A stretch of DNA of 64,000 bases from a phage (GCA_026066175.1 GCA_026066175.1_4721.2); one strand, 5' to 3'; shown: positions 6,630 through 63,363, numbered from the stretch's first letter. Translations and numbers: made by a program. Notes: a model not told the origin generated them from the letters alone.

Positions 6630-7403
6630 TTATTCATGATCAGTGTAGAAATGGTGAGGATAGCCGGAGTACGATCCTGCGTTACCGGCTATGGATTCTT
6701 TCTGGGAATCGACGACGAGCGCGTAGAACTGTCGGGAATTTGTTAACGTTGAGAAATAAGAGGAAAGGACTTTTTCGTTCAACGCATCGCACGGTAGACA
6801 GGTACGCCCACAGAACGTCGTAATACGGCCATCCGGATAGATCTCACGGATCATACGCCATTCACCGATATCAACCGGCGATGGCGCTGCTACACCACCT
6901 GTTATCGTTAAATAACGATCATACGTGGTATGACATTCTGGATGTACGTAAATTGGCTTATTGGCCTCAACTTCTTCAGGAGCATAGCGTCGACCGAGAA
7001 GTTCAATAACCTCCAGATAGATTGTAGGCAGATCGCAAAGAACCCCTTCCTCTTTACGTTTCTTCGTGATTCGAGGACGAACCTCATTGATAACGTAGGC
7101 GAGTTCATTCAGCGCTTCTTGCGCTGGTAGCACGAATAAACGGTCCGGTTTGTCGGACAAGTCTTCATTTACGTAAACGTAACAAACATCGTCTTTAGGC
7201 GCGTAGAAGAAGCGAGAGACCTTAAAGGTTTCCGTAGTACGATAACCGAGACGCGTTTGGTCCTGCACCAGAGAAAATATCCAGCGACGTCCTTCGTCCT
7301 GTTCAATGATATCATTGAACATCTTTGTTTGATCAGGAAGTTGATATTCTTCCTGTAATTTAGCAAGTGCTTCATTATCCAGTTTGGTGTAAACATCAGT
7401 CAT
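6630..7403 (-). CDS. hypothetical protein, paralog of 5711 gene product (257 aa)
   Basis: N-terminus MTDVYTKL; IREIYPDGRITT and PIYVHPECHTTYDRYLTITGG align to the paralog; Cys cluster CGRTCLPC. Confidence 0.75.
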   Translation of the reverse strand: MTDVYTKLDNEALAKLQEEYQLPDQTKMFNDIIEQDEGRRWIFSLVQDQTRLGYRTTETFKVSRFFYAPKDDVCYVYVNEDLSDKPDRLFVLPAQEALNELAYVINEVRPRITKKRKEEGVLCDLPTIYLEVIELLGRRYAPEEVEANKPIYVHPECHTTYDRYLTITGGVAAPSPVDIGEWRMIREIYPDGRITTFCGRTCLPCDALNEKVLSSYFSTLTNSRQFYALVVDSQKESIAGNAGSYSGYPHHFYTDHE

Positions 7404-7430
7404 GATAGTATCCTCGATTAGTAAGGTTGG

Positions 7431-7835
7431 CTAGTCTATCTTAAGCCAGATTGATGGTAAATGGAAATAGACACCGTCGTCTATTTGTTTTTGTGTTAAC
7501 GGGGTTGGAAGTTTAGTGATGATGTTGTCGATCGATTCCTCAATGTCACTTGTTAGAACGTCGATGTGGTAATAGCGAGCGATGCGTCCGTTACGTTCTA
7601 GCCAAAACAGACGAACGAAATCACTATTTTTATTAATCGCATTCATAAACACGATTTGATGAAGCAGGATCATTCTTGACGAGGGGTAATCGTCAGGACG
7701 CGGAGTCATCACCAGTTCCCAACGTTTCCGTCGCACGCCTTTTTTGAATTGACTCGTTACATTTGAACCACTTTTACCTAAGTTTATAACAAATTGCTTT
7801 AGACGATACGGTGTGTTTCTGTAAATATCGGTCAT
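7431..7835 (-). CDS. hypothetical protein, short member of the same family (134 aa)
   Basis: N-terminus MTDIYRNT; first gene after the TATATTAC repeat. Confidence 0.65.
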   Translation of the reverse strand: MTDIYRNTPYRLKQFVINLGKSGSNVTSQFKKGVRRKRWELVMTPRPDDYPSSRMILLHQIVFMNAINKNSDFVRLFWLERNGRIARYYHIDVLTSDIEESIDNIITKLPTPLTQKQIDDGVYFHLPSIWLKID

Positions 7836-9931: not shown

Positions 9932-11244
9932 GGTTCAATAGCTCCTGCTCGTAACAGCATAATAACGAACGGTGTGAAATAATAACGATCTAACGGAGAA
10001 AGCAGTGGTATAGCGTCAACCATCTGCTTCAGTGCCGGATGACTGATTGCCTTTTCATCAATCATGTCGCGCACCATACTTTCAATAATCGTCATTGGTG
10101 CTTGGTTGCGATAGAACGCCTCGGTGAAAACGTAGTACGGGTCATCGGCGACCGACGGGAATAACGGAATGCCGTCATACTCCATTGAGGTAAGGTTGGT
10201 CACCAATGGGTTCGTCGGTGGTGTGCTTTCAGGAACAGCCAACGTTTTACCTACATCCTCACCCAGCGACGTGGTCGCAGGCCATATACAGAACCGTGCG
10301 CCACTAAAACGAATTCCACCCGCCGCCGGATACTGATAGAAACGCTTTGTTGACAACAGCGTGAATTTCACCGTCAACCGCGCCTCGTCTTCCCGACGTC
10401 CGTCCATTACCCATTCAAAGACAGAAATCGCATTCGCTTCCTGGCTGTCGTCTACGTTAAGACGTCCGAAGTTCCATGAAGGTTTTCCTTCAAGCGACGA
10501 CCATAATTTCGTAAACGCGTTAACACACCAGGGATCGTAGGTTGCAGCATCTTGACCAGGAACAAGCAGTGTGTTGAGTTCACGGCTGTAGAATTCATGG
10601 TAATACGCGTGACAAAGTCCCAGTGCACGACGGAGATAATCGTACTTACGATTGTATTTCTCCGTTGCCATTACGGGATGTTTTCCGTGCTTTAACTGGT
10701 CTTGGTCGTATAGCGTATCCTCAACGATTTTTGCTTCCAGTTCGATAAGCTGTTTTTCGTCAAGAATACGTTGGAAGGAAATATCGCATTCGTAAGCCGG
10801 TGCTAAGCTGATGTTCTTCGGCGTGATTCGGGTGATCGTGTACACCGCGATACGATGATCGAGACCGGAGATTAACAGCATGTTACCTAAAAGAGGAACC
10901 GATACCGCCGGAAGTATACACGTACCCTCTGATTGAAAACGTGCGGTCCCGTTGTCGTACGACGGCGTCAATGATGACATTAACTTGATAGGGTAATGTC
11001 TGATGCGACGGTACTGCTGTTCAGCGATGTCTCGGTTAGCTTGAAAACTGCTTTGTTCATCATCGCGACCGAGAATCTGTTCGTAATAATCACATTCTAC
11101 GGAATAACCGGATGCGTAATTCACTAACCCGATTTGACTATTGTATTGCTCATCTACCACCGCAGAACGATAAACATCGTCGCGAGCCTTCGCGGGTTGT
11201 TGGGGGTTGATGATGGGTTTCGCGGGCTTCTTAGCGAGCGCCAT
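9928..11244 (-). CDS. hypothetical protein (438 aa)
   Basis: ATG start; 4-nt overlap with the downstream gene. Confidence 0.8.
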   Translation of the reverse strand: MALAKKPAKPIINPQQPAKARDDVYRSAVVDEQYNSQIGLVNYASGYSVECDYYEQILGRDDEQSSFQANRDIAEQQYRRIRHYPIKLMSSLTPSYDNGTARFQSEGTCILPAVSVPLLGNMLLISGLDHRIAVYTITRITPKNISLAPAYECDISFQRILDEKQLIELEAKIVEDTLYDQDQLKHGKHPVMATEKYNRKYDYLRRALGLCHAYYHEFYSRELNTLLVPGQDAATYDPWCVNAFTKLWSSLEGKPSWNFGRLNVDDSQEANAISVFEWVMDGRREDEARLTVKFTLLSTKRFYQYPAAGGIRFSGARFCIWPATTSLGEDVGKTLAVPESTPPTNPLVTNLTSMEYDGIPLFPSVADDPYYVFTEAFYRNQAPMTIIESMVRDMIDEKAISHPALKQMVDAIPLLSPLDRYYFTPFVIMLLRAGAIEP

Positions 11245-12796
11245 AGCGTTTCACTCCTACGATGGTACCGACAAGGATTCTCGGTACGAATAAACTACGA
11301 TGTTTGAACCACGAAGCGGTTGTTGGGATACGTTTGATGGCTTCGATAAGCCCGATTAGCGTATAGCACCCCCGACTGTTCTTCTTAGGCCAGTACTTTT
11401 TATCTAGACCTAATACTGCAAACAGTTCATCCACCAGATTGGGATAACAACACAACGCTTCAAGTGTTTCAACCTGTAACTGACTTAAATCTAACAGTAT
11501 CGCTAGACGAACGTGGTAATCACTCCGTAGGTCTAATGGATCTTTCGCTTCAAGATCACCAACGTCGGTTAATGTCCACGCGTCTCTTGCGTAGCGGTAT
11601 TTACCCTTCCAAACCTCAAGGAAAAAAGGAGACCGGTAATGACATTTTGACCATTCTGGGTACTCACGGAACCACCGAACAAGATCGGGATGGAATTCAC
11701 CTTCTTCGGCTAACGAGTCCAACGTCACCAACAGGTTAGGTTGTTCAGGATCGATGGCAAGCAGCGCGGTGAAAAGCGTGCTTGATGGAAGTTCGGTTTC
11801 CACACTTGATGGCGGTAGCCATTCATCCAGATCAGGATACCGATACGCTTGAATCGATGCACCCTGCTCGGGCAAGAACGAATCACGAAGAATGTCCTGA
11901 TACTGCACCACCATACCACCACGACGCGCACGGGATTTATCACGCACCGAAAGGCTCGGTTTGTAAAGGTACTCTTCGGGGAGTATCTGTTGGTGTACTT
12001 GAACAGGATACCGCGCTACGATGTGTGTTGGCGTGTCGTATGTGTAACGGTAAGAGAAGGTTGCGTTGTACGAAGAACTGTTCTCATTCTTCTCGGGTTT
12101 CGGAGCGTCGGTGAAATCAAATTGACCAGAGATCTCTTCTTGCATTTCCCTGATAACCAATTTAACGCTCTTACCGTCACCTGCAACCGTCGTCATGGTG
12201 GTTGCGCGGTTGTCGAACCCGTCTCTAAGGTATTCGCTGAACTTATCCCCGTAACCCGCTATTGCTTCCCGGTGTGTATGAATAACTTTTAACAACATGA
12301 GAAACTGTGTTGGGATCGCATAGCTGTATTCGGCGCTAAGGAAGGCAGCGACGTGCTGACTTGTCAGCAAACGTTTCATGTCGTACCACCAACGTTCGGC
12401 GGTGACCTGATCCTCGAAACGTTTGGTGATTTGCATGGTCGCAACCATCGTACTGTAAACAGGCACTAACGACACACCAAGGTTACGGTCTTCAAATACT
12501 GGAAGACTGTTTCGTTTGTAAACGGTATCGTACATGGACGCCTGTTCTTCAGGGACAACGTTAAGCTCGATTTGGATAAACCCGTCAGCAGGCCCCTTTA
12601 CATCCTGATCAACAACTTGCGGTGGTTGCTCGTTCGCGGCGCTCATTTTAGCGTGAAGCGCTTCCCCTCGAAAAAGAATGTTCTCCCGACTATAATCCCA
12701 CCCGCAAAGCTCGCTGATCTGCCGTAACACCGCGATTGCAACCGGACGTGTTACCGTCGCGTATACGTCATTGATTTTTCGATCAAGTTTAGGCAT
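11231..12796 (-). CDS. hypothetical protein (about 521 aa)
   Basis: Listed start 12823 is GTG; in-frame ATG at 12796 has a GAGGA SD and sits 4 nt after the upstream stop. Confidence 0.8.
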   Translation of the reverse strand: MPKLDRKINDVYATVTRPVAIAVLRQISELCGWDYSRENILFRGEALHAKMSAANEQPPQVVDQDVKGPADGFIQIELNVVPEEQASMYDTVYKRNSLPVFEDRNLGVSLVPVYSTMVATMQITKRFEDQVTAERWWYDMKRLLTSQHVAAFLSAEYSYAIPTQFLMLLKVIHTHREAIAGYGDKFSEYLRDGFDNRATTMTTVAGDGKSVKLVIREMQEEISGQFDFTDAPKPEKNENSSSYNATFSYRYTYDTPTHIVARYPVQVHQQILPEEYLYKPSLSVRDKSRARRGGMVVQYQDILRDSFLPEQGASIQAYRYPDLDEWLPPSSVETELPSSTLFTALLAIDPEQPNLLVTLDSLAEEGEFHPDLVRWFREYPEWSKCHYRSPFFLEVWKGKYRYARDAWTLTDVGDLEAKDPLDLRSDYHVRLAILLDLSQLQVETLEALCCYPNLVDELFAVLGLDKKYWPKKNSRGCYTLIGLIEAIKRIPTTASWFKHRSLFVPRILVGTIVGVKRYGAR

Positions 12797-13172
12797 CGAT
12801 GTCGTCCTCGCTAATTTCCTCACCTCCTTGTTGTCGATATCCGGTATAATGAATCAGACTGCTCTGTAGAAGCTCTTTAACGAGCCCTAGACGCGTTTTA
12901 TCTGTTTCATTGGACGTTTCCATTAATGTTTCTATTTCGTTGTTTAAAACAGCGTATAGCGCTTCTAACGGCAATCCTTGGATGATTGGTTTGATGGTAC
13001 CTTCCGGTAGTGCCGCAACAGGAATCTGCACGACGGTTTCGTGTGCGGTATGTGGGTTAATACGGCAAATATACATACCGGGTACTGAATGTCGCGGGCA
13101 CGCCGCTACCAAGCATGTCTGTTGCTGCGCACCGTTAAGTGCGAGTGAAAGAAATTTTGCTTCACGTGTCAT
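12789..13172 (-). CDS. hypothetical protein (127 aa)
   Basis: ATG start. Confidence 0.6.
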   Translation of the reverse strand: MTREAKFLSLALNGAQQQTCLVAACPRHSVPGMYICRINPHTAHETVVQIPVAALPEGTIKPIIQGLPLEALYAVLNNEIETLMETSNETDKTRLGLVKELLQSSLIHYTGYRQQGGEEISEDDIDA

Positions 13173-13224
13173 CGCAGATTCCTGTTTGAAAGATAAGATA
13201 TCACATGATGGTCGACAGCATAAA

Positions 13225-13244
13225 GCCCACCCCGAAGGGCGGGC
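13225..13244 (-). terminator. hairpin GCCCACCC-CGAA-GGGCGGGC
   Basis: 8-bp GC stem with one mismatch and tetraloop, downstream of the 1127-aa gene stop; followed on the minus strand by TTTATGCTG. Confidence 0.5.
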
Positions 13245-16644: not shown

Positions 16645-16659
16645 AAAACGTTGTTCCTC

Positions 16660-17763
16660 TTAAAAGTAATATTTCAGCGCCTCGCGAGAGACGTCAAGCA
16701 TAGCCGCCGTTGAGTTCGTGAAGAACTCGGCATAGCCCACAAGCGGCACCTTGATCCACGCGGTATACGCTGTAAGGTATCGAGAAAGGGCTACCATAGC
16801 ATCATCAGAAGCTGTAATGGATAACTGACCTTGTTGACGATACACATCGTTCAGTTTTGCTTGCAGGTTCCCTGCGATCTCAAGTAATTCGTTGGCGTAC
16901 TTTTTACGATGGTACGTAATAAGCAGATCAACACCGGTATTTACCGATTCGAGTAAAACGCCAATCTGCTCCAACGACGGCATGGTTACAACCATATCAC
17001 GCTCAACAGACACGACGTCCTGAACTTCAAATCGTGCTGATTGAATCGCGAGAGATTGTTGGATTGCTCCAGAACCCGTTGCGGTAACCTGATCAAGTCG
17101 TAGCATCCGGTTACCTAACAACGTCGTGTTAACCAGCCGCGATTCATTCAACGCACTGTACACCTTGTTCAACAGCGTGTGTGCATCACGATTAATCACA
17201 TCGATTAATGCGGTATCCGTCTGTTTTAAGATGATGTCAAGCGCTCTGTCTAACGTGTTTGCGAACTGTTTGAAGTCATCACGGAACGACGTTGACAACA
17301 GGTATTCTGCGATCTTCAGGTTTTGTTTGTATAACGTGTTTCCGGTGGTGAAGTCGAACCCGAAACTGTTTCCATAACGCAAATGTGGTGCGAGCGTGGG
17401 TGAGGCTTCAAAACTTTGCGCGATGGGTTTATGTCCAACCGCTTTCGTGTATTGACGACGGATATTACTCAGCTCGATTTGCAACGCACGACTGCGGTCG
17501 ATATACCGTGCGATGAAAGCAGTGATATTCCGCAACGTTGTCCAAATCGCATCGATGATCGCTTTGATGATTTTCATCGCAAGCTGGTTGTATGATTCCA
17601 GGGTAAGGAGATCAGCGCTTTCTGTAGCATAACCGGTTGCCAGAGCGCCGCCCGCTTGCTGATAAATAAGCTGATGGATTTGTCGTTGTGTTGCCGTCTC
17701 AGGTAGAGGTAAGGTTTTTAACAAGCTTAAGGCTTGGATTTGTCCATCATTGGTCTGCAGCAT
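16660..17763 (-). CDS. hypothetical protein, member of 5-gene paralog family (about 368 aa)
   Basis: Listed start 17826 is GTG; ATG at 17763 has a GAGGAA SD. Family-like helical segment with conserved Trp (AIIDAIWTTLRNI). Confidence 0.7.
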   Translation of the reverse strand: MLQTNDGQIQALSLLKTLPLPETATQRQIHQLIYQQAGGALATGYATESADLLTLESYNQLAMKIIKAIIDAIWTTLRNITAFIARYIDRSRALQIELSNIRRQYTKAVGHKPIAQSFEASPTLAPHLRYGNSFGFDFTTGNTLYKQNLKIAEYLLSTSFRDDFKQFANTLDRALDIILKQTDTALIDVINRDAHTLLNKVYSALNESRLVNTTLLGNRMLRLDQVTATGSGAIQQSLAIQSARFEVQDVVSVERDMVVTMPSLEQIGVLLESVNTGVDLLITYHRKKYANELLEIAGNLQAKLNDVYRQQGQLSITASDDAMVALSRYLTAYTAWIKVPLVGYAEFFTNSTAAMLDVSREALKYYF

Positions 17764-21823: not shown

Positions 21824-21871
21824 GTGATGTCTCCAGTAATAATTCAAAAGATAAATCAGCGCAGCATAAGA

Positions 21872-21903
21872 CCCTCTCCCAACCCGGAAGGGAAGGGAGA
21901 GGG
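21872..21903 (-). terminator. conserved palindromic hairpin, variant CCCTCTCCC...GGGAGAGGG
   Basis: Between the 21926 stop and the 21823 start; preceded by GCATAAG as at 7913. Confidence 0.55.
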
Positions 21904-41347: not shown

Positions 41348-41349
41348 CG

Positions 41350-41830
41350 ATAACAGGTCCCCCTACTTGTAATGAGTGGGTGAACTCTCTTTAATTGCTG
41401 GAAACCTTTAATGCCCCTCCACACCACAACGCAATCCGAAAGGGTAAACGTGACGGTTGTCGAAAGACAGAAAGAAGTTGGAGGGGATCACCTAAGCTGA
41501 AATAAAAGCCGTTACTTTCTGGATATGGGAAGAGTCTAACGGTGCTAAGGGTTCTGCTAGAAATAAGGTAACCGTAGCAGCGAAGACCCTACGGACTGTC
41601 GTGACCAACTCACTGAGTTGGCGTGGTGAAACACGGACAGACTACGGGTAACGTTCAACGACCATCCGGTTGCGCGGAGTAGGAGAAATAGGATGTTCTC
41701 TGAAAAGGGAGAAGTCGGTCGAGGTGTTGTAGAAACACCGTTGCTTTGCTTCGCAAACATAAGACAGGCTAAGATATGGTCTATATTAAATGTAATACTA
41801 TGATGTATAGAATTTAATGGCTCGATATTA
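41350..41830 (+). ncRNA. candidate group I intron catalytic core (or degenerate remnant)
   Basis: About 500 nt without ORF; R-like GTTCAACGACCATCC (41653-41667) and S-like AAGATATGGTCTA (41771-41783) can form P7 (GACCA/TGGTC) with a compensatory change relative to the canonical GACTA/TAGTC; Q/P-like GCAATCCGAAAGGG at 41431-41444; several local hairpins. Confidence 0.4.
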
Positions 41831-41859
41831 GCAGTTCATATCCAAATGGGCAGATCCTT

Positions 41860-42075
41860 TTGAATCTATCCAGAGCGTGCGTATTTCGTGAGCTTTCACG
41901 GATTGAGGGCGTCTCTGATTATCAATTCAGGAAGCTGGGTATTAACTTCATCACGGGCGGTAAAACGAATGCGGTTGACTTCTGCCGAATCGTTCATAAA
42001 GCCCCGTCGATGTTCGAACTGTTAGCGCATTTTGACGCGACACGTCCGAAGGAAGCGCCAAAGACCCTTGATTGA
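41860..42075 (+). CDS. small ORF (71 aa, TTG start); possibly the 3-prime exon of the upstream gene rather than an independent gene
   Basis: Open frame begins at 41818 right after the intron-like core; followed by an A11 run and a bidirectional terminator. Confidence 0.25.
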   Translation: MNLSRACVFRELSRIEGVSDYQFRKLGINFITGGKTNAVDFCRIVHKAPSMFELLAHFDATRPKEAPKTLD

Positions 42076-42100
42076 AAAAAAAAAAGAAACGCATGCGAAG

Positions 42101-42131
42101 CCCCTCCCCTGGCGGAAGCCGGAGGGAGGGG
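42101..42131. terminator. hairpin CCCCTCCCCTGGC-GGAA-GCCGGAGGGAGGGG with flanking A11/T-rich tracts
   Basis: Variant of the conserved hairpin; A-run 42076-42086 gives a U-tract for the minus-strand cluster, TTTTATGCG on the plus side. Confidence 0.6.
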
Positions 42132-42148
42132 TGGAGGTTTTATGCGTT

Positions 42149-48642: not shown

Positions 48643-48696
48643 GGAGTGCTTTTCCTATTTTTATTTTCTGCACAGGATAAATTCAACAGCATAATA

Positions 48697-48729
48697 CCCT
48701 TCCCTACCCTTATATGGGGCGGGGAAGGG
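48697..48729 (-). terminator. imperfect GC hairpin CCCTTCCCTACCC-TTATAT-GGGGCGGGGAAGGG
   Basis: Intergenic; degenerate relative of the conserved hairpin. Confidence 0.35.
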
Positions 48730-55274: not shown

Positions 55275-55844
55275 TCAACGATTCTTCATCACTTTACCCA
55301 GGCTTTCGATATTATCCCAAAAGCGATTTTTACTTGGCGCATCGCCGACGATAACCGACATCAAATCGCGACGTTCACGACTGATGATGCCCTGTGATTT
55401 CCAGATCACCATCGTCCAGCAAGCTGCCAGAACGAACAGATGGTTGATGCTTGGTTTGGTTTGCGCAATGAACGCAAGCCATGCCCAGATACCGGTATAT
55501 ACTAATGTCACTAAAAAGAGAGATATTGTCGCAATGACCACAACGAAGTTTTGGACAGCGGGTTGATTAGCGTTATCCTGAATAGCGGTAAGATCGGGAA
55601 GATTACCTTCAACTGAACTCGTTTCATCAATTTCCAATTCTTCGATTTCTTTTCGTGTGTCAGGAGCTAATCCAGCATCATCGAGATGCTTTTTTAACCG
55701 CTGTATGCTTAATCGTTGACCGACAGGAATGTTGATGTTGTCGTAACTATTAAGCGCATCGACCAGGGAACGACCGTCCACCAACACCAAACTCGCGGTA
55801 CCCATCGTTTGCGGTTTTATTTTGTAAAGGTCTTTTACTTTCAT
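55275..55844 (-). CDS. predicted membrane protein, two C-terminal TM helices (189 aa)
   Basis: Hydrophobic segments VVVIATISLFLVTLVYTGIWAWLAFIA and LFVLAACWTMVIW. Confidence 0.7.
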   Translation of the reverse strand: MKVKDLYKIKPQTMGTASLVLVDGRSLVDALNSYDNINIPVGQRLSIQRLKKHLDDAGLAPDTRKEIEELEIDETSSVEGNLPDLTAIQDNANQPAVQNFVVVIATISLFLVTLVYTGIWAWLAFIAQTKPSINHLFVLAACWTMVIWKSQGIISRERRDLMSVIVGDAPSKNRFWDNIESLGKVMKNR

Positions 55845-58500: not shown

Positions 58501-59142
58501 TTAGATGTACTGCTTACCGCCCACGAAGGACGTTAGCCAGTTCCCGCTGACGAGCTGTGACGCCCAACCTGGAACAGCTTTACCATTCTGGCTCATGATG
58601 TTACCACACCAACCAGGGAATCCGGGACGGATGTAATAGAAAGTTAAATTGTAGAGATGGCAATTCCATACCGCAACGTTATGTTTACCAGAAACCGCTT
58701 TAAAGACAAACGCGACAGGTAAAGGAGACGATAACAATTCGGTCACAGGGACAGCTGACCAGTTCGCATTCGCGTTCCATGGTTGCCATGTATGGCTACG
58801 CGAGTCGCAATATACGTTACCGTTGCTACCGCGTCCGCCCGCGTTCCACCAAAGCGATGGACTCATGTTCTTAAGTGATGTAAATTGCTGCGGTGGGATA
58901 TTCGGAATGATGACAGGGTTAGTACCTTGTCCATGTTTCTTTTCTTTTGCGTTCACATATCCGTTTATCGATTCAAGGTATTTAGTACCAGGATAATTGT
59001 TCTGGACTTGTGTTGCAATATCACGAACGTCGAACGTCCAGCAGATCATGGTGTTATAGTAAGCGTCGGTGTTGTCGTACCATGCGTTACCATCTTGTAA
59101 ACGTGCGCCGCTATTCGGTGTTTTATCTGTGCTTATAGCCAT
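58501..59142 (-). CDS. hypothetical protein, paralog of 59152 gene product (213 aa)
   Basis: C-terminal 40 aa nearly identical between paralogs (GFPGWCGNIMSQNGKAVPGWASQLVSGNWLTSFVGGKQY). Confidence 0.75.
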   Translation of the reverse strand: MAISTDKTPNSGARLQDGNAWYDNTDAYYNTMICWTFDVRDIATQVQNNYPGTKYLESINGYVNAKEKKHGQGTNPVIIPNIPPQQFTSLKNMSPSLWWNAGGRGSNGNVYCDSRSHTWQPWNANANWSAVPVTELLSSPLPVAFVFKAVSGKHNVAVWNCHLYNLTFYYIRPGFPGWCGNIMSQNGKAVPGWASQLVSGNWLTSFVGGKQYI

Positions 59143-59151
59143 GGTGTTGTC

Positions 59152-59919
59152 CTATACGTTGATGGTTGAGATGTCGGATGCCGGATGTGTGTTGTCATCC
59201 GGCGGTACGTACAGAAACACCCACAGATAAAACAGTAGCTTCTCTAACTTCAATTTAATTGAAGTTAGATATTGCTTACCTCCAACAAACGACGTTAGCC
59301 AGTTACCTGAAACAAGCTGCGATGCCCAGCCGGGTACAGCCTTACCGTTTTGACTCATCACGTTACCTGCCCAGCCTGGAAAACCCGGTCGGAAAATATA
59401 TACTTGAATATGCGTCAGTGCGTTATCATTACCACCGCCAACAGCAACGTTACGACTACCAGACGACGGGAAATATTCTTTTAAGAACAGGGGATCGGTT
59501 GCTAATAAAGAAGCAGGCCAAGGATTTGCAGATGCATCAACGTCGAATTCGGTCCAACTCCAATGACGGTTTGTGTCGAACCATGTTGACGTACCACCAC
59601 CTCTCACAGCAAGATTGCGCGCATCACGGACATTATAGATCGATTCGATGTTACGCCATCCGCCTTTCGCGGCGTTTGCTGCATAGCAAATCGCATTACC
59701 ACCATTCTTCTTCTCGAAAACGGTTCGTTTGATATGAACACGGTCGATAAACGCCTCACCGTATTTGTTGACGAGTGTTTGTGCGATATCACGAAGATCG
59801 TGCATATGGAAAGCGATGTCTTCGTTATGAAACCATGTTGTTGCATTCCAAACAGTACCGTTTGGTTCAGCACACATCGATCGGATATTGTTGCGTTGAT
59901 TAATCGCGATAAAACCCAT
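59152..59919 (-). CDS. hypothetical protein, paralog of 58501 gene product (about 256 aa)
   Basis: ATG at 59919 (GAGGT SD) preferred; alternative ATG at 59970 abuts the hairpin. Confidence 0.7.
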   Translation of the reverse strand: MGFIAINQRNNIRSMCAEPNGTVWNATTWFHNEDIAFHMHDLRDIAQTLVNKYGEAFIDRVHIKRTVFEKKNGGNAICYAANAAKGGWRNIESIYNVRDARNLAVRGGGTSTWFDTNRHWSWTEFDVDASANPWPASLLATDPLFLKEYFPSSGSRNVAVGGGNDNALTHIQVYIFRPGFPGWAGNVMSQNGKAVPGWASQLVSGNWLTSFVGGKQYLTSIKLKLEKLLFYLWVFLYVPPDDNTHPASDISTINV

Positions 59920-59974
59920 TGTATACCTCGTTCCTATTCTCAAAAAGGAAATTTCATACGATGACGCCATAGCG

Positions 59975-60006
59975 GCCCCTCCCGACCCGTAAGGGAAGGG
60001 AGGGGC
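59975..60006 (-). terminator. conserved palindromic hairpin, variant GCCCCTCCC-GACCCGTAAGGGAA-GGGAGGGGC
   Basis: Same architecture with GTAA loop. Confidence 0.5.
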
Positions 60007-60018
60007 GCACACTATGAA

Positions 60019-60525
60019 CTATTTACCGATAACTTCAACAGAATCAGGATCCGCGATTAACGCACGATCGGTTGAGCAGTTGAAGAAGACCATACCAACA
60101 CCATCACCATTCGAGTTCAGGGTTGAACTTACGTAAGACAATGTTGGTTTATTCATACGGTAGAAGCGTTCGCTGGTGGTGGTATTAAAGCCTAGATCAA
60201 CGTAGTCTTTTACCGTGGTGTACAACTGTGTGGATTCGAACACGGTTACCGGAGAGTCCACCGTAAACTGACTACCCTCGTCGACAACCAGAACTTTATC
60301 GTTCCAGATTTCAGTGGTTGAAAACTTCGGTTTCCAATGTTCGAACTCTTGGGTCGCACCCCAGCAAGAATAAACAGCAAGATTGCTGTTCTTCTCAACA
60401 GGTTTCAACCCCACCAGTTGCGTCAGGTCTTTATCCAGGTTCGGTAAGCCTTCCAGCGTAGCGCATCCACCCAGAGAAAGTACCATCAACATACCAAGAA
60501 TAATCGCGCAAAGTTTTTTCATCAT
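60019..60525 (-). CDS. putative outer-membrane lipoprotein (168 aa)
   Basis: Signal peptide MMKKLCAIILGMLMVLSLGG followed by Cys (lipobox-like LGGC, Ala at +2); AAGGAA SD. Confidence 0.7.
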   Translation of the reverse strand: MMKKLCAIILGMLMVLSLGGCATLEGLPNLDKDLTQLVGLKPVEKNSNLAVYSCWGATQEFEHWKPKFSTTEIWNDKVLVVDEGSQFTVDSPVTVFESTQLYTTVKDYVDLGFNTTTSERFYRMNKPTLSYVSSTLNSNGDGVGMVFFNCSTDRALIADPDSVEVIGK

Positions 60526-60531
60526 TAGATT

Positions 60532-60566
60532 TCCTTATGTGTTAACGGAAGTGACTTCCATAAGGA
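60532..60566 (-). promoter_or_regulatory. hairpin TCCTTATG...CATAAGGA overlapping the lipoprotein SD
   Basis: 8-bp outer stem; the 3-prime arm on the minus strand contains the AAGGA SD of the lipoprotein gene. Confidence 0.35.
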
Positions 60567-60573
60567 TTGATGA

Positions 60574-63363
60574 TTACTTTTTGAGCGCTTTAAGTTCTTC
60601 TTCCAACGCTTCCACTTTCGTCGTAAGCTTCTGTACTTGTTTGATTAATGGAACCACCAAACGTTCGTACATAACACCTTCAGCAACCAACCCATTAGAA
60701 GAAACGATGGCGGGGTCATCTTCTTCGGTTGCATCACGCCAGTGCACGTATTGTGGTGCTATCTCACCGACCTCTTCGGCAATCAACCCATACCAACCCC
60801 AATCCTTGTTGTCCGCTTCGCAGGTAGAACGATACCAAACAGGACGCATCTCCAATACTTTATCCGCTTGTTCATCCGTGATATTCTCGATATCTTTCTT
60901 ATAGCGACGTGACGACGTTGAACGGAACACATTGTTGATCCCAGCAACAGGACTGATATACATATTAGCCCCGCTGGTTGTAGTGCTAATGTCCCATACC
61001 GCAAATCCGCCGTTACTCCCATTTTTTACTACCAACGTATTGGCAATAATGTCCAGGTTATTGTCGTACCCGGTTAACTGGTTTTCCGTTACATAACTGG
61101 ATAGGTTAACCGAGTAGTTCTTACTGTTATAACAACGACGCCATCCTGGGCTGTTGGTGCTGCCGTTATAGTTGTCGTAGCTATAAATGAACTCGGAGTT
61201 GGTTTTCGCCCCACTGACGGAAGACGTGGTAGCGGTTGTAACACGGATGGTGTAGTTTGTCATCCCGAAGCTAACGACCTCGATAACAGCGCCAGCCAGA
61301 GGGATGATCCCGCATTTGGTTTCACTGTCTGGGATGTATGCGCTATCGGCAGCAGCGAAGGAGCAACGTGCGACCCAAGCACGAGTGTTGAAGGCTCCAT
61401 GGTTTTGCAGTAATGTGATAAACGAGGACGTTGTAATCGAGCTGTTATTATCACCGGTGATCAACCAGCCGGTTGGACATGCAGTTGCACCAACGTTTTT
61501 CGCTGTTAGCGTGATGTTCTGTGATCCGTCGAAGGCTACGCCGCTAATAGTACGCGCAGTCTGTAGCTTCGTCGCCGTTGCTGCGTTCCCTGACGTGTTC
61601 TGATTACCTGCTTTGTTCACGCCTGGTAAATCAATGTTGGCGGTTCCATCGAAGCTGACGCCGCCTATTGTTCTTGCTGTAGCGAGTTTCGTTGCTGTGG
61701 TTGCAGCATTACCAACCTTTAACCATTCGCCCCATGGACCATCGATGCCGTTCCATGATGCTGTTAAACTACGTACGTAAATATTTCCGGTACGTACAGT
61801 GTAACGTTGCGTTCCACCGAACTGTCCAGCTGGGAGCACTTCGATATAACCTACCGCGTTTGCTTCAGGGAAATTGTGGGCAACATCAGCATTCGTTGAT
61901 GTTTGTTTAGACCAAATACCTACGGACTCCTCTACCGGACCGTAGGTATCCAGATTTGCGTCGGTGGGGAGCTGTCCTCGAAAACGTCGGAATAATGATG
62001 CTGTTAACCCCAACGTTGTTTGCATTCCTTGAACGCTTGACTGCGATAAAAGCGCCCGCGCTGTCGACGTAATGGCAGCTAAAGCAACCTTGTCGGCTCC
62101 GGTGAAAAATGGGAATTTGTTCGCCGAGGTCGTTAAGCCTGAAAGGGCTGTTAGTAATGCGTTAAGGGGTTGTTTTCCGGCTAACGCGTTAGTTATCGTC
62201 GTTGCGAAATTAGGATCGTTGCCTAAAGCTTGAGCCAGCTCATTAAGCGTATTTAGCGCTTCTGGAGACGAGTCAATCAGCGACGCGATAGCACGCATTA
62301 CAAATTCCGTGTTGGCAATCTGTTGACTGCTATCATTCTCTGCAGCCGTTGGCGCTGCTGGGATACCGGTGAATACAGGGTTATTAAGATCTGCCTTGAG
62401 GGCGATGAGACGTCTAAGCGCTTCAACATCGACTCTCAGGTTTTCCCATCCGACGAGATAACCTTCATCGGTTGTGTGATAACGGTTGTACCAAAAATCG
62501 CCATTAACACCGAAAAAGAATATTCCCTTCTCTTCGTATTGTGGGCCAGAACTGTTCCGCGATGAGCTAATGTATTTTATTTCGATAAGGCCGTTGAATA
62601 CCACTCCTGGGATAATTTTGTCGTTTCCATGCAATTGTGATACCTGGTACGCCCCCGGCGTTGCGGTTCTAATCCACGTTAAGAATTCCGATGTTCCAGC
62701 GTTACCGCTAAAATGCTTGGCGTCGGTGAGTATCGCACCAAAACCGAACATACCGGGTAAAGCAACTCGTCCATCGGTACGGTCACGAATATCTGTCGCA
62801 ACAACGGGCAATTGTTTACGAACGTCATTAACCGCTTTAGGTGTTGCTGATTTTGTCTCGTCGTCGCTCTCAGTATCATTGCTCAGGATGGTCAGTCCTC
62901 GAGTATCTGTGGTCGCATCAGGAAGAAACGCGTTATCCAACACCTTAAGCTGTATTGCATCCGTGTTACTAACAGCAACATACACCTGGCAGTTAAGAAC
63001 GCTGGTTGCGCCTTCGGTGGGCACAGGCTTATATCTTTCTGGTGCGCTGCAGACGGCGACCAGAACACCTTGATCGTCATACAGACCGATCTCACGTACC
63101 CAGAACCCACCTTGACTGGTGGGAATAATGCCTTCAACAATAATCCGGGTTGTGTCGTCAACATCAATGCGGATGTTGGAAACTTCCCCACGATAAACTT
63201 CGTGTATAAGTGCCGTTTGGCTAGCATCGGGGGTTGGTGTAGAGCCGTTACTGTCACCAACGGCAAAATGCGTGATTTTTAGTTTCTCACCGTCAGGAAG
63301 TAATGCTGCGGTGATACGTTCTGCGCCTTTATCGGTAATAACCGTTTTATATGTTGTACTCAT
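60574..63363 (-). CDS. tail fibre protein with C-terminal S74-type intramolecular chaperone domain (929 aa)
   Basis: N-terminus MSTTYKTVITDKGAERITAAL...ITHFAVGDSNG...EVYRGEV...VEGIIPTSQGGFWVREIGLYD matches the phage tail-fibre N-terminal domain; C-terminus SSRRYKKDIENI...LEMRPVWYR...YGLIAEEVGEIAPQYV...MYERLVVPLIKQVQKL matches the self-cleaving chaperone domain. Confidence 0.9.
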   Translation of the reverse strand: MSTTYKTVITDKGAERITAALLPDGEKLKITHFAVGDSNGSTPTPDASQTALIHEVYRGEVSNIRIDVDDTTRIIVEGIIPTSQGGFWVREIGLYDDQGVLVAVCSAPERYKPVPTEGATSVLNCQVYVAVSNTDAIQLKVLDNAFLPDATTDTRGLTILSNDTESDDETKSATPKAVNDVRKQLPVVATDIRDRTDGRVALPGMFGFGAILTDAKHFSGNAGTSEFLTWIRTATPGAYQVSQLHGNDKIIPGVVFNGLIEIKYISSSRNSSGPQYEEKGIFFFGVNGDFWYNRYHTTDEGYLVGWENLRVDVEALRRLIALKADLNNPVFTGIPAAPTAAENDSSQQIANTEFVMRAIASLIDSSPEALNTLNELAQALGNDPNFATTITNALAGKQPLNALLTALSGLTTSANKFPFFTGADKVALAAITSTARALLSQSSVQGMQTTLGLTASLFRRFRGQLPTDANLDTYGPVEESVGIWSKQTSTNADVAHNFPEANAVGYIEVLPAGQFGGTQRYTVRTGNIYVRSLTASWNGIDGPWGEWLKVGNAATTATKLATARTIGGVSFDGTANIDLPGVNKAGNQNTSGNAATATKLQTARTISGVAFDGSQNITLTAKNVGATACPTGWLITGDNNSSITTSSFITLLQNHGAFNTRAWVARCSFAAADSAYIPDSETKCGIIPLAGAVIEVVSFGMTNYTIRVTTATTSSVSGAKTNSEFIYSYDNYNGSTNSPGWRRCYNSKNYSVNLSSYVTENQLTGYDNNLDIIANTLVVKNGSNGGFAVWDISTTTSGANMYISPVAGINNVFRSTSSRRYKKDIENITDEQADKVLEMRPVWYRSTCEADNKDWGWYGLIAEEVGEIAPQYVHWRDATEEDDPAIVSSNGLVAEGVMYERLVVPLIKQVQKLTTKVEALEEELKALKK

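Follow-up and report, generated by a model that had tools for sequence, protein, structure and literature searches.

We examined a lipoprotein gene carried by a 64,000-nucleotide stretch of phage DNA (GCA_026066175.1_4721.2), the whole of which is referred to here as the window. Window DNA is 86 to 89% identical to that of Escherichia phage vB_EcoM_Goslar, a nucleus-forming jumbo phage (Chimalliviridae), and among phage records none besides Goslar matches it at this level. The gene occupies positions 60019 to 60525 on the minus strand and, as the original prediction had stated, encodes a precursor of 168 amino acids beside a tail-fiber gene. Its ortholog, at the same genomic position in Goslar, is gp88 (Goslar_00088/HOV27_gp088; 97.6% amino acid identity), and the product is a member of PHROG 9559 (phrog_9559; E value, 1.4e-21 over residues 1 to 153), which is annotated "unknown function." Use of a second ATG at 60522 would shorten the product to 167 amino acids, and because this is the only start codon present in Goslar gp88, the shorter form is probably the correct one. 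The window and Goslar genes differ at 43 of 504 nucleotides, with 39 of the 43 differences falling at third codon positions and 4 changing an amino acid. This third-position bias, together with a ratio of nonsynonymous to synonymous substitution rates (dN/dS) of 0.023 (dS, 0.44), indicates a real gene under strong purifying selection. Both the coding gene and its lipobox lie far beyond what chance would produce.

The N terminus has the features expected of a lipoprotein precursor. Residues 1 to 20 (60466 to 60525, minus strand) form a signal peptide in which a basic N-terminal region containing KK is followed by a hydrophobic core, as seen in the sequence, in a lipobox scan, and in the alignment of homologs. 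It is followed by the lipobox L18-G19-G20-C21 (60463 to 60474, minus strand), in which Cys21 is the predicted lipidated N terminus of the mature protein and Ala occupies the +2 position. The sequence reads MMKKLCAIILGMLMVLSLGG up to the lipobox Cys and CA from there on, and the signal peptide could be aligned in all homologs. In our own pattern scan, the protein matched every element of a lipoprotein precursor (basic N region, hydrophobic core, L-x-[GAS]-C, and a Cys within residues ~15 to 35). Of 24 homologs with identities of only 25 to 50%, 23 retain the Cys of the L-x-G/A-C lipobox, the single exception coming from a partial contig of 471 nucleotides. The residue at +2 is Ala in the window and Ala, Ser, Lys, Val, Thr, or Gln across the homologs, and it is never Asp, in agreement with the E. 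coli +2 rule for sorting to the outer membrane by the Lol pathway. Strict and relaxed scans of all six frames of the 64-kb window found no second credible lipobox open reading frame (ORF). The predicted signal peptide and LGGC lipobox with Ala at +2 are therefore well founded, and the gene product is very probably a genuine, conserved, exported lipoprotein with an outer membrane sorting signal.

A word-indexed search found 6 relatives, and one seeded with a profile found 30. When 1.84 billion representative proteins were searched exhaustively with a profile, only 15 matched at an E value of ≤0.001, about 10 of which look like true family members, with the remainder matching over short stretches only. 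By tblastn against 50,697 phage records, the family was present in 55, all of them jumbo phages and all infecting Escherichia, Salmonella, Erwinia, or Proteus. Among the carriers are Goslar, SPN3US-like phages, Kwan/Wellington, Asesino, Huxley, Machina, ChrisDB, and PhiEaH2. Sequence searches of Pfam, NCBIfam, PADLOC, and the PDB returned no relative of the family. The nr database gives the name "DUF2846" to the homolog in Erwinia phage pEa_SNUABM_43, but this assignment was not reproduced in a Pfam scan of all 24 members at an E value of ≤1.

The mature domain (60022 to 60465, minus strand) is 148 amino acids long with an isoelectric point of 4.5, and AlphaFold2 predicts that residues ~40 to 150 form an up-and-down beta-barrel. 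This fold was taken from a 24-sequence input; with only 7 sequences, the mean predicted local distance difference test score was 36 and the model was unusable. Cys54, Cys150, Gly84, Arg120, Tyr122, Ser134, Gly140, and Gly142 are invariant in the 24-member alignment. Because the two invariant cysteines fall on the first long strand (Cys54, 60364 to 60366, minus strand) and the last strand (Cys150, 60076 to 60078, minus strand) of the predicted barrel, they are consistent with a periplasmic disulfide. The protein contains 4% Pro, the predicted barrel is globular, and the C terminus (...ALIADPDSVEVIGK) is hydrophilic, with no transmembrane segment.

Comparison of the model with the PDB by Foldseek gave no match below an E value of 0.008. 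A weak Foldseek match was to a protein of RB49 that has a "lysozyme inhibitor LprI-like" domain, which brings in the alternative that the lipoprotein, anchored in the outer membrane, inhibits or binds a cell wall enzyme in the periplasm, in the manner of MliC/PliC/PhiA or T4 Spackle. Its task would be either to stop the lysins that superinfecting phages carry in their virions or to hold back the endolysin made by the phage itself, and the location of the gene near an endolysin and an M15-like peptidase in SPN3US speaks for it. Against it, neither sequence nor profile matches any Pfam, NCBIfam, or PDB family, and the gene is unlinked to an endolysin in Goslar. We regard an inhibitor of this kind as distinctly unlikely.

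The gene lies 48 nucleotides downstream of a tail-fiber gene (60574 to 63363, minus strand) whose 929-amino-acid product has the Pfam domains Phage_tail_fib, Phage_fiber_2, and Peptidase_S74. By BLASTP, fiber residues 1 to 623 are 78% identical to Goslar gp90, and the tip (residues 624 to 929), which contains the Peptidase_S74 intramolecular chaperone, has no counterpart in Goslar. The Goslar tail-fiber assembly gene, gp89, is missing from the window. The fiber is a mosaic, and its downstream breakpoint lies at ~60560, within the 5′ arm of a hairpin that precedes the lipoprotein gene and is described below.

In four Goslar-clade genomes, the lipoprotein gene sits directly 3′ of a variable host-recognition cassette. 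In each, the cassette starts with DUF7941, which is followed by the 929-amino-acid fiber with its S74 chaperone tip in the window, by a 1,324-amino-acid P1-S-like fiber and the tail-fiber assembly gene in Goslar, by a 1,024-amino-acid fiber and a DUF4376 gene in the metagenomic relative L007, and by a 1,375-amino-acid DUF7941-headed protein in L006. The orthologs in SPN3US (gp159) and Kwan (gp173) are lone genes on the strand opposite to that of their neighbors and have no adjoining fiber gene. They are flanked on one side by a small DUF7941 virion protein and on the other by an M15-like peptidase, a DUF1353 protein, a small transmembrane ORF, and a GH108 endolysin, with a DUF7941+GP38-adhesin protein in addition in SPN3US; the DUF7941 neighbors are gp160 and gp155 in SPN3US and gp172 in Kwan. 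Homologs thus sit among host-recognition genes in at least three phage genera, and judging from gene order, the stable association is with the host-recognition region, not with any one fiber tip.

The lipoprotein also diverges at the same pace as its conserved neighbors. Its 97.6% identity to the Goslar protein compares with 95.7 to 98.4% for the flanking gp84 to gp87, its 88% identity to the L007 protein compares with 96% and 62% for flanking conserved genes, and its 49% identity to the L006 protein compares with 43 to 52%. Because the lipoprotein diverges like the genes around it while the fiber tip has been swapped, a receptor blocker matched to the fiber is disfavored.

Among the neighboring DUF7941 genes, SPN3US gp155 joins a GP38 adhesin domain of the T-even type to a DUF7941 module at its N terminus. 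The small DUF7941 protein gp160 of SPN3US is abundant not only in virions but also in am27 sup− particles, from which known tail proteins are missing (gp155 and gp160 correspond to 10673 to 12850 and 7253 to 7780 of our sequence L002).

The ribosome-binding site of the lipoprotein gene, AAGGA (60532 to 60536, minus strand), lies 6 nucleotides before the first ATG and 9 nucleotides before the second, and the sequence around it, AAGGAAAUC, is conserved in Goslar and L007. In the window, AAGGA is contained within the 3′ arm of a two-tier hairpin (60532 to 60566, minus strand), as had been predicted. The outer stem pairs UCCUUAU (60566 to 60560) with AUAAGGA (60538 to 60532) and so includes AAGGA, the inner stem pairs GGAAG (60559 to 60555) with CUUCC (60551 to 60547), and in the minimum-energy fold the AUGAUG start pairs with an upstream UCAUCA. 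Folding of 101 nucleotides gave a minimum free energy of −20.6 kcal/mol (z, −2.9; 1 of 200 shuffles was as good), and folding of 70 nucleotides gave −13.0 kcal/mol (z, −2.6), so the hairpin is only modestly better than shuffled sequence.

The original prediction went on to propose that this hairpin controls translation, which it would do by masking the ribosome-binding site. The coverage of AAGGA by the stem, the pairing of the start codons, and z values of −2.6 to −2.9 are what such an element might show, and it could damp translation specifically from fiber transcripts that read through into the gene. Comparison with related phages did not support the proposal, however. The Goslar counterpart has a z value of +0.27; it keeps the 3′ arm and the ribosome-binding site but not the 5′ arm, so that only 4 to 5 of the 7 outer pairs remain, and its sole difference in the inner stem breaks a pair without compensation. 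In L007, the intergenic region is 16 nucleotides long and has this ribosome-binding site without a hairpin. In L006, an intrinsic terminator precedes the true start, and folding of the SPN3US and Kwan sequences gave nothing comparable. Moreover, homology between the window and Goslar begins inside the 5′ arm, at ...TATGGAA, which suggests that this arm was brought in with the swapped fiber module.

The same sequence contains TATG (60559 to 60562, minus strand), which alignment singles out as a candidate late promoter; the phage's own RNA polymerase would start transcription there at G60559. This motif is the consensus at which the nonvirion RNA polymerase of phiKZ initiates late transcription, its G being +1 (PMC4666361). 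Over the 35 nucleotides from TATG to the ribosome-binding site, 34 are identical to Goslar, at a divergence of 23% at third codon positions; by our own binomial estimate, the chance of this is ~0.001. If transcription starts at the conserved TATG, the 5′ arm lies outside the mRNA, which then begins with a 5-bp hairpin and has an uncovered ribosome-binding site; the outer stem would form only in read-through transcripts of the fiber gene. We infer that the conserved leader comprises a promoter and a ribosome-binding site and that the outer stem is a by-product of the fiber swap, acting at most on read-through transcripts. Translational control by the hairpin accordingly seems improbable to us.

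Thirteen nucleotides after the stop codon lies a GC-rich hairpin (59975 to 60006, minus strand; −35.4 kcal/mol; z, −5.7), followed directly by another TATG (59971 to 59968). The Goslar counterpart of this hairpin (−26.9 kcal/mol; z, −4.9) carries a compensatory change from C:G to U:A. Hairpin and TATG together probably form a terminator/late-promoter junction. Intergenic GC-rich hairpins followed by T-TATG-C recur in the window (13173 to 13242, 21824 to 21893, 48643 to 48712, and 59955 to 60006) and in L006 (8965 to 9003), and these sites resemble junctions between a terminator and a late promoter of the phiKZ type. TATG by itself shows no enrichment: of the 29 genes preceded by at least 35 intergenic nucleotides, 10 have it upstream, with ~8 expected. 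Only its context, a GC hairpin followed by T-TATG-C and conservation in Goslar, therefore counts. Neither a sigma-70 promoter nor a canonical intrinsic terminator flanks the lipoprotein gene. Given the lone opposite-strand gene in SPN3US and Kwan, the conserved leader, and the covarying downstream hairpin, the gene looks like an independent expression unit.

Any interpretation of the gene must account for an observation that the original prediction did not include, namely, the abundance of gp88 in Goslar virion preparations. Mass spectrometry of polyethylene glycol/CsCl-purified particles detected gp88 with 77.8% coverage and 20 peptides, at an estimated ~740 copies per virion (range, 491 to 1158), making it the fourth most abundant protein outside the cryo-electron microscopy (cryo-EM) model (bioRxiv 10.64898/2026.04.21.720040). 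Its amount was similar to those of the DUF7941 proteins gp22 and gp23, and the authors described it as having no clearly predicted function (bioRxiv 10.64898/2026.04.21.720040). The preprint treats gp88 as virion associated, a "high-copy virion protein of unknown function," whereas we read it as an exported lipoprotein; the words lipoprotein, signal peptide, outer membrane, and receptor never occur in it (bioRxiv 10.64898/2026.04.21.720040).

A genuine virion component, for example, one present in several hundred copies on the DUF7941 fiber cloud or at the peripheral baseplate, is one reading of these numbers, and the gene does lie among DUF7941 and fiber genes in every genome examined. This reading needs either an inefficient signal peptide or acquisition at or after lysis. 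Against it, the conserved lipoprotein signal and the disulfide pair point to export, whereas tailed-phage virions are assembled in the cytoplasm. Furthermore, gp88 is not in the cryo-EM model, and its SPN3US ortholog is missing from the SPN3US virion proteome: a spectral-count table that reports proteins down to 3 to 6 spectra lists gp155 and gp160 but not gp156 to gp159, gp159 being the ortholog.

The Goslar preparation also contains host outer membrane proteins and phage assemblies that are not part of the virion. PhuZ and chimallin copurify with the virions, as the authors themselves remark (bioRxiv 10.64898/2026.04.21.720040). Among the peptides listed in Table S4 of the preprint are some from E. 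coli OmpA, OmpC, OmpF, Lpp, Pal, and EF-Tu. The areas given there are 2.2e5 for OmpA AALIDCLAPDRR and 1.0e5 for OmpF AEIYNKDGNKVDLYGK, and the best gp88 peptides listed have areas of 5.3e5 and 3.3e5, which places outer membrane material at the same order of magnitude as gp88. As an observation in its own right, the listed peptides of outer membrane proteins have intensities within a few-fold of those of abundant phage proteins outside the structural model.

Considering the Omp peptides, the absence from SPN3US virions, and the export signal, copurification with the outer membrane is the more economical reading of gp88 abundance, and the likelier explanation is that outer membrane fragments copurify with virions or stick to them. 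We consider a true particle component to be an unlikely alternative overall. In one still less likely version, virions would collect several hundred copies, anchored by their lipids, from the membrane at or after lysis. These copies would decorate the DUF7941 fiber cloud or the baseplate, and through their acyl chains the giant virion could more readily engage the envelope of the next host or fuse with it, for instance, as the membrane-bound early-infection vesicle forms. Were this version true, there would be no precedent for such a Sec-exported, lipidated protein that joins the virion of a tailed phage outside the cytoplasm.

An outer membrane lipoprotein could instead act in lysis, either in the manner of an outer membrane spanin (o-spanin) or as a new kind of outer membrane disruptor at the end of infection. 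Several observations speak for this. The protein is the only credible lipoprotein in the Goslar sequence scanned (NC_048170, 1 to 50 kb and 88.8 to 237 kb, the 64-kb window standing in for the part between), where, as in the window, no second lipoprotein was found; it is conserved at the rate of a core gene; and neither the experimentally defined phiKZ lysis cassette gp141 to gp144 nor a spanin-like gene pair that a whole-genome scan of SPN3US turned up has a detectable homolog in Goslar. The GH108 endolysin and a small transmembrane ORF are three genes away from the lipoprotein gene in SPN3US and Kwan, and phiKZ has a lipoprotein o-spanin beside its endolysin (PMC12894885).

The gene nevertheless lacks the company that a spanin keeps. 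No inner membrane spanin gene adjoins or overlaps it in any of six genomes: the gene upstream of it encodes a fiber, Tfa, DUF4376, or DUF7941 protein or has the opposite orientation, and none of the neighbors has an N-terminal transmembrane segment. In Goslar, gp88 is 80 kb from the endolysin gp24 and 12 kb from gp98. Lambda Rz1 and phiKZ gp141.1 are likewise outer-membrane-sorted lipoproteins of tailed phages with Gram-negative hosts, but the window lipoprotein lacks a partner gene, shows no homology to them, and has a periplasmic domain that is neither Pro-rich nor extended. In hhalign comparisons, phiKZ gp141.1 aligned over 19 columns of the signal peptide only (probability, 5.6%) and the T1 unimolecular spanin gp11 aligned over 34 columns of the signal region only (probability, 46%). 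We therefore rejected membership among two-component o-spanins, for want of a partner gene and of homology to gp141.1, and among unimolecular spanins of the T1 gp11 type, given the hydrophilic C terminus without a transmembrane segment; the globular barrel and its 4% Pro also fit poorly. Lambda spanins are present at roughly a thousand copies per cell, and the abundance of gp88 is far above that level. A lysis function thus appears unlikely, and with moderate confidence, we conclude that the lipoprotein is neither a structural protein nor a spanin.

The spanin-like pair of SPN3US lies, unannotated, at 180,017 to 180,976 of NC_027402 (34018 to 34977 of our sequence L019) and has the features of a separated two-component spanin. 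The 156-amino-acid product of its first gene has a transmembrane segment at the N terminus, a stretch of coiled coil, and a tail rich in Pro, and its second gene, 10 nucleotides downstream, encodes a 159-amino-acid lipoprotein with the lipobox LLTGC. The lipoprotein of the pair was found in 73 phage records (SPN3US-, Kwan-, Asesino-, and CR5-like) and not in Goslar, and the two genes correspond to PHROGs 8719 and 8165, both annotated "unknown function." Since the SPN3US-, Kwan-, and Asesino-like phages that have the lipoprotein of this pair also carry the family studied here, the latter is a second, distinct lipoprotein. The Goslar endolysin gp24 is GH108-like by tblastn, and in the Goslar clade, homology to the phiKZ cassette or the SPN3US pair yielded no candidate for the holin or outer membrane disruption genes. 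The gp85 homolog (window 55275 to 55844, minus strand) has a soluble N-terminal part of ~100 amino acids, two transmembrane segments, and an invariant WKSQGIISRERRD motif. Its gene adjoins the lipoprotein gene on the 3′ side in L006, but we rejected it as a lysis partner because jumbo phages without the lipoprotein (those of Serratia and Klebsiella, and PhiEaH1) encode homologs of it.

The original prediction likened the gene to T5 llp and to cor of lambdoid phages. The resemblance in setting stood up. Like T5 Llp and its counterparts in T5-like phages, the protein is a phage-encoded lipoprotein with an outer membrane sorting signal and its own expression signals, beside genes for receptor recognition, and the role proposed is the same, namely, to block reinfection and protect progeny from debris. 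Like Cor of phi80, N15, HK022, and T1, which mediates FhuA-directed exclusion, it is encoded by a small gene in or next to the late-region tail-fiber genes. Kinship did not stand up. The mature part of T5 Llp is ~61 amino acids long compared with 148 here, Cor differs in size and predicted fold, and Cor occurs in temperate or T1-like phages whereas the window comes from a virulent jumbo phage. In profile-to-sequence comparisons with Llp, Cor, gp11, and gp141.1, only the signal peptide and lipobox aligned; hhalign gave 17 columns with T5 Llp (probability, 54%) and 22 columns with T1 Cor (probability, 56%), in both cases within the signal peptide only. Membership in the T5 Llp or Cor families was rejected because the mature domain lacks homology to them. 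The likeness is thus one of analogy, which leaves a similar way of working admissible.

Llp of T5-like phages covaries with the cognate receptor-binding protein, a trait that the window lipoprotein does not share. Ltp of Streptococcus phage TP-J34 is a lipoprotein exclusion factor that acts on genome entry and not on a specific receptor, in a temperate phage of a Gram-positive host and with an unrelated fold. An Ltp-like action on entry would be compatible with a lipoprotein that does not covary with the fiber tip.

Judging from the host-recognition neighborhood, an Llp/Cor-like role is by analogy the single most plausible function. The protein would be exported by Sec and cleaved by signal peptidase II, with lipidation of Cys21, and the Lol pathway would then sort it to the host outer membrane, where a disulfide-bonded beta-barrel domain of ~130 residues would be displayed. 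It would be a nonstructural product of a conserved gene of Enterobacterales-infecting chimalliviruses, expressed at a high level and probably late, from its own TATG promoter or by cotranscription with fiber genes. In the outer membrane, it may alter or mask an envelope component needed for adsorption or genome entry, so that the infected cell would be shielded from superinfection and progeny would be spared loss on cell debris. The target would have to be common to phages with different fiber tips, for example, a conserved secondary receptor or entry step. We favor this explanation as a whole only tentatively, putting its chances somewhat short of even, and hold its functional core, modification of the envelope to exclude superinfecting phages or protect progeny, to be no more probable than that and perhaps slightly less.

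Several points weigh against it. The lipoprotein is 2 to 3 times the size of Llp or Cor and has no homology to either. It does not covary with the receptor-binding tip, having kept its close identity to gp88 despite the swap. An accessory exclusion gene is not usually conserved across genera at the rate of core genes, a hint that the lipoprotein may play a more central part. Outer membrane vesicles should largely separate from virions in CsCl, and so membrane must stick to the virions if the abundance of gp88 is to be explained by copurification. The listed gp88 peptides leave detection of the signal peptide ambiguous, because the reported coverage (77.84%, or 130 of 167 residues) fits the loss of residues 1 to 31, FYR, and MNK and equally well the loss of residues 1 to 3, FYR, and 123 to 153. 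The peptides CATLEGLPNLDK and ATLEGLPNLDK are not among the gp88 peptides listed, which a modified N terminus would fit, without proving anything. Finally, lipidation, location, and exclusion are all predictions from sequence and genomic context.

Elsewhere in the window, a gene for a 255-amino-acid protein (59152 to 59919, minus strand) and the gp87 homolog (58501 to 59142, minus strand) are diverged paralogs with 39% identity. A stretch of ~40 residues ending in GGKQY is almost identical in the two; it forms the C terminus of gp87, and the 255-amino-acid paralog runs ~37 residues further. This extra paralog is not in Goslar and has a 96% identical copy in L007, and neither paralog has a Pfam or PHROG match. 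Two regions, 16645 to 17746 (~1.1 kb) and 41348 to 42148 (~0.8 kb), contain no ATG-started ORF of at least 70 amino acids. An Rfam scan of the whole window gave no family matches.

For the Goslar particle, our analysis identifies one of the four most abundant unexplained "virion proteins," gp88, as a predicted exported lipoprotein. Either virion preparations carry stoichiometric amounts of outer membrane, which would affect every copy number in the Goslar table, or the lipoprotein is a true component of the particle. Copy numbers given there for abundant proteins outside the structural model may include membrane contaminants. For nucleus-forming jumbo phages more broadly, superinfection exclusion, receptor handling, and outer membrane biology are not addressed in a review of these phages or in the Goslar structure paper, and the family offers a concrete single-gene exclusion candidate that can be expressed in trans. 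If it is an exclusion factor that acts independently of the fiber tip, it would point to a conserved entry step common to the enterobacterial chimalliviruses, which would be relevant to the design of phage cocktails.

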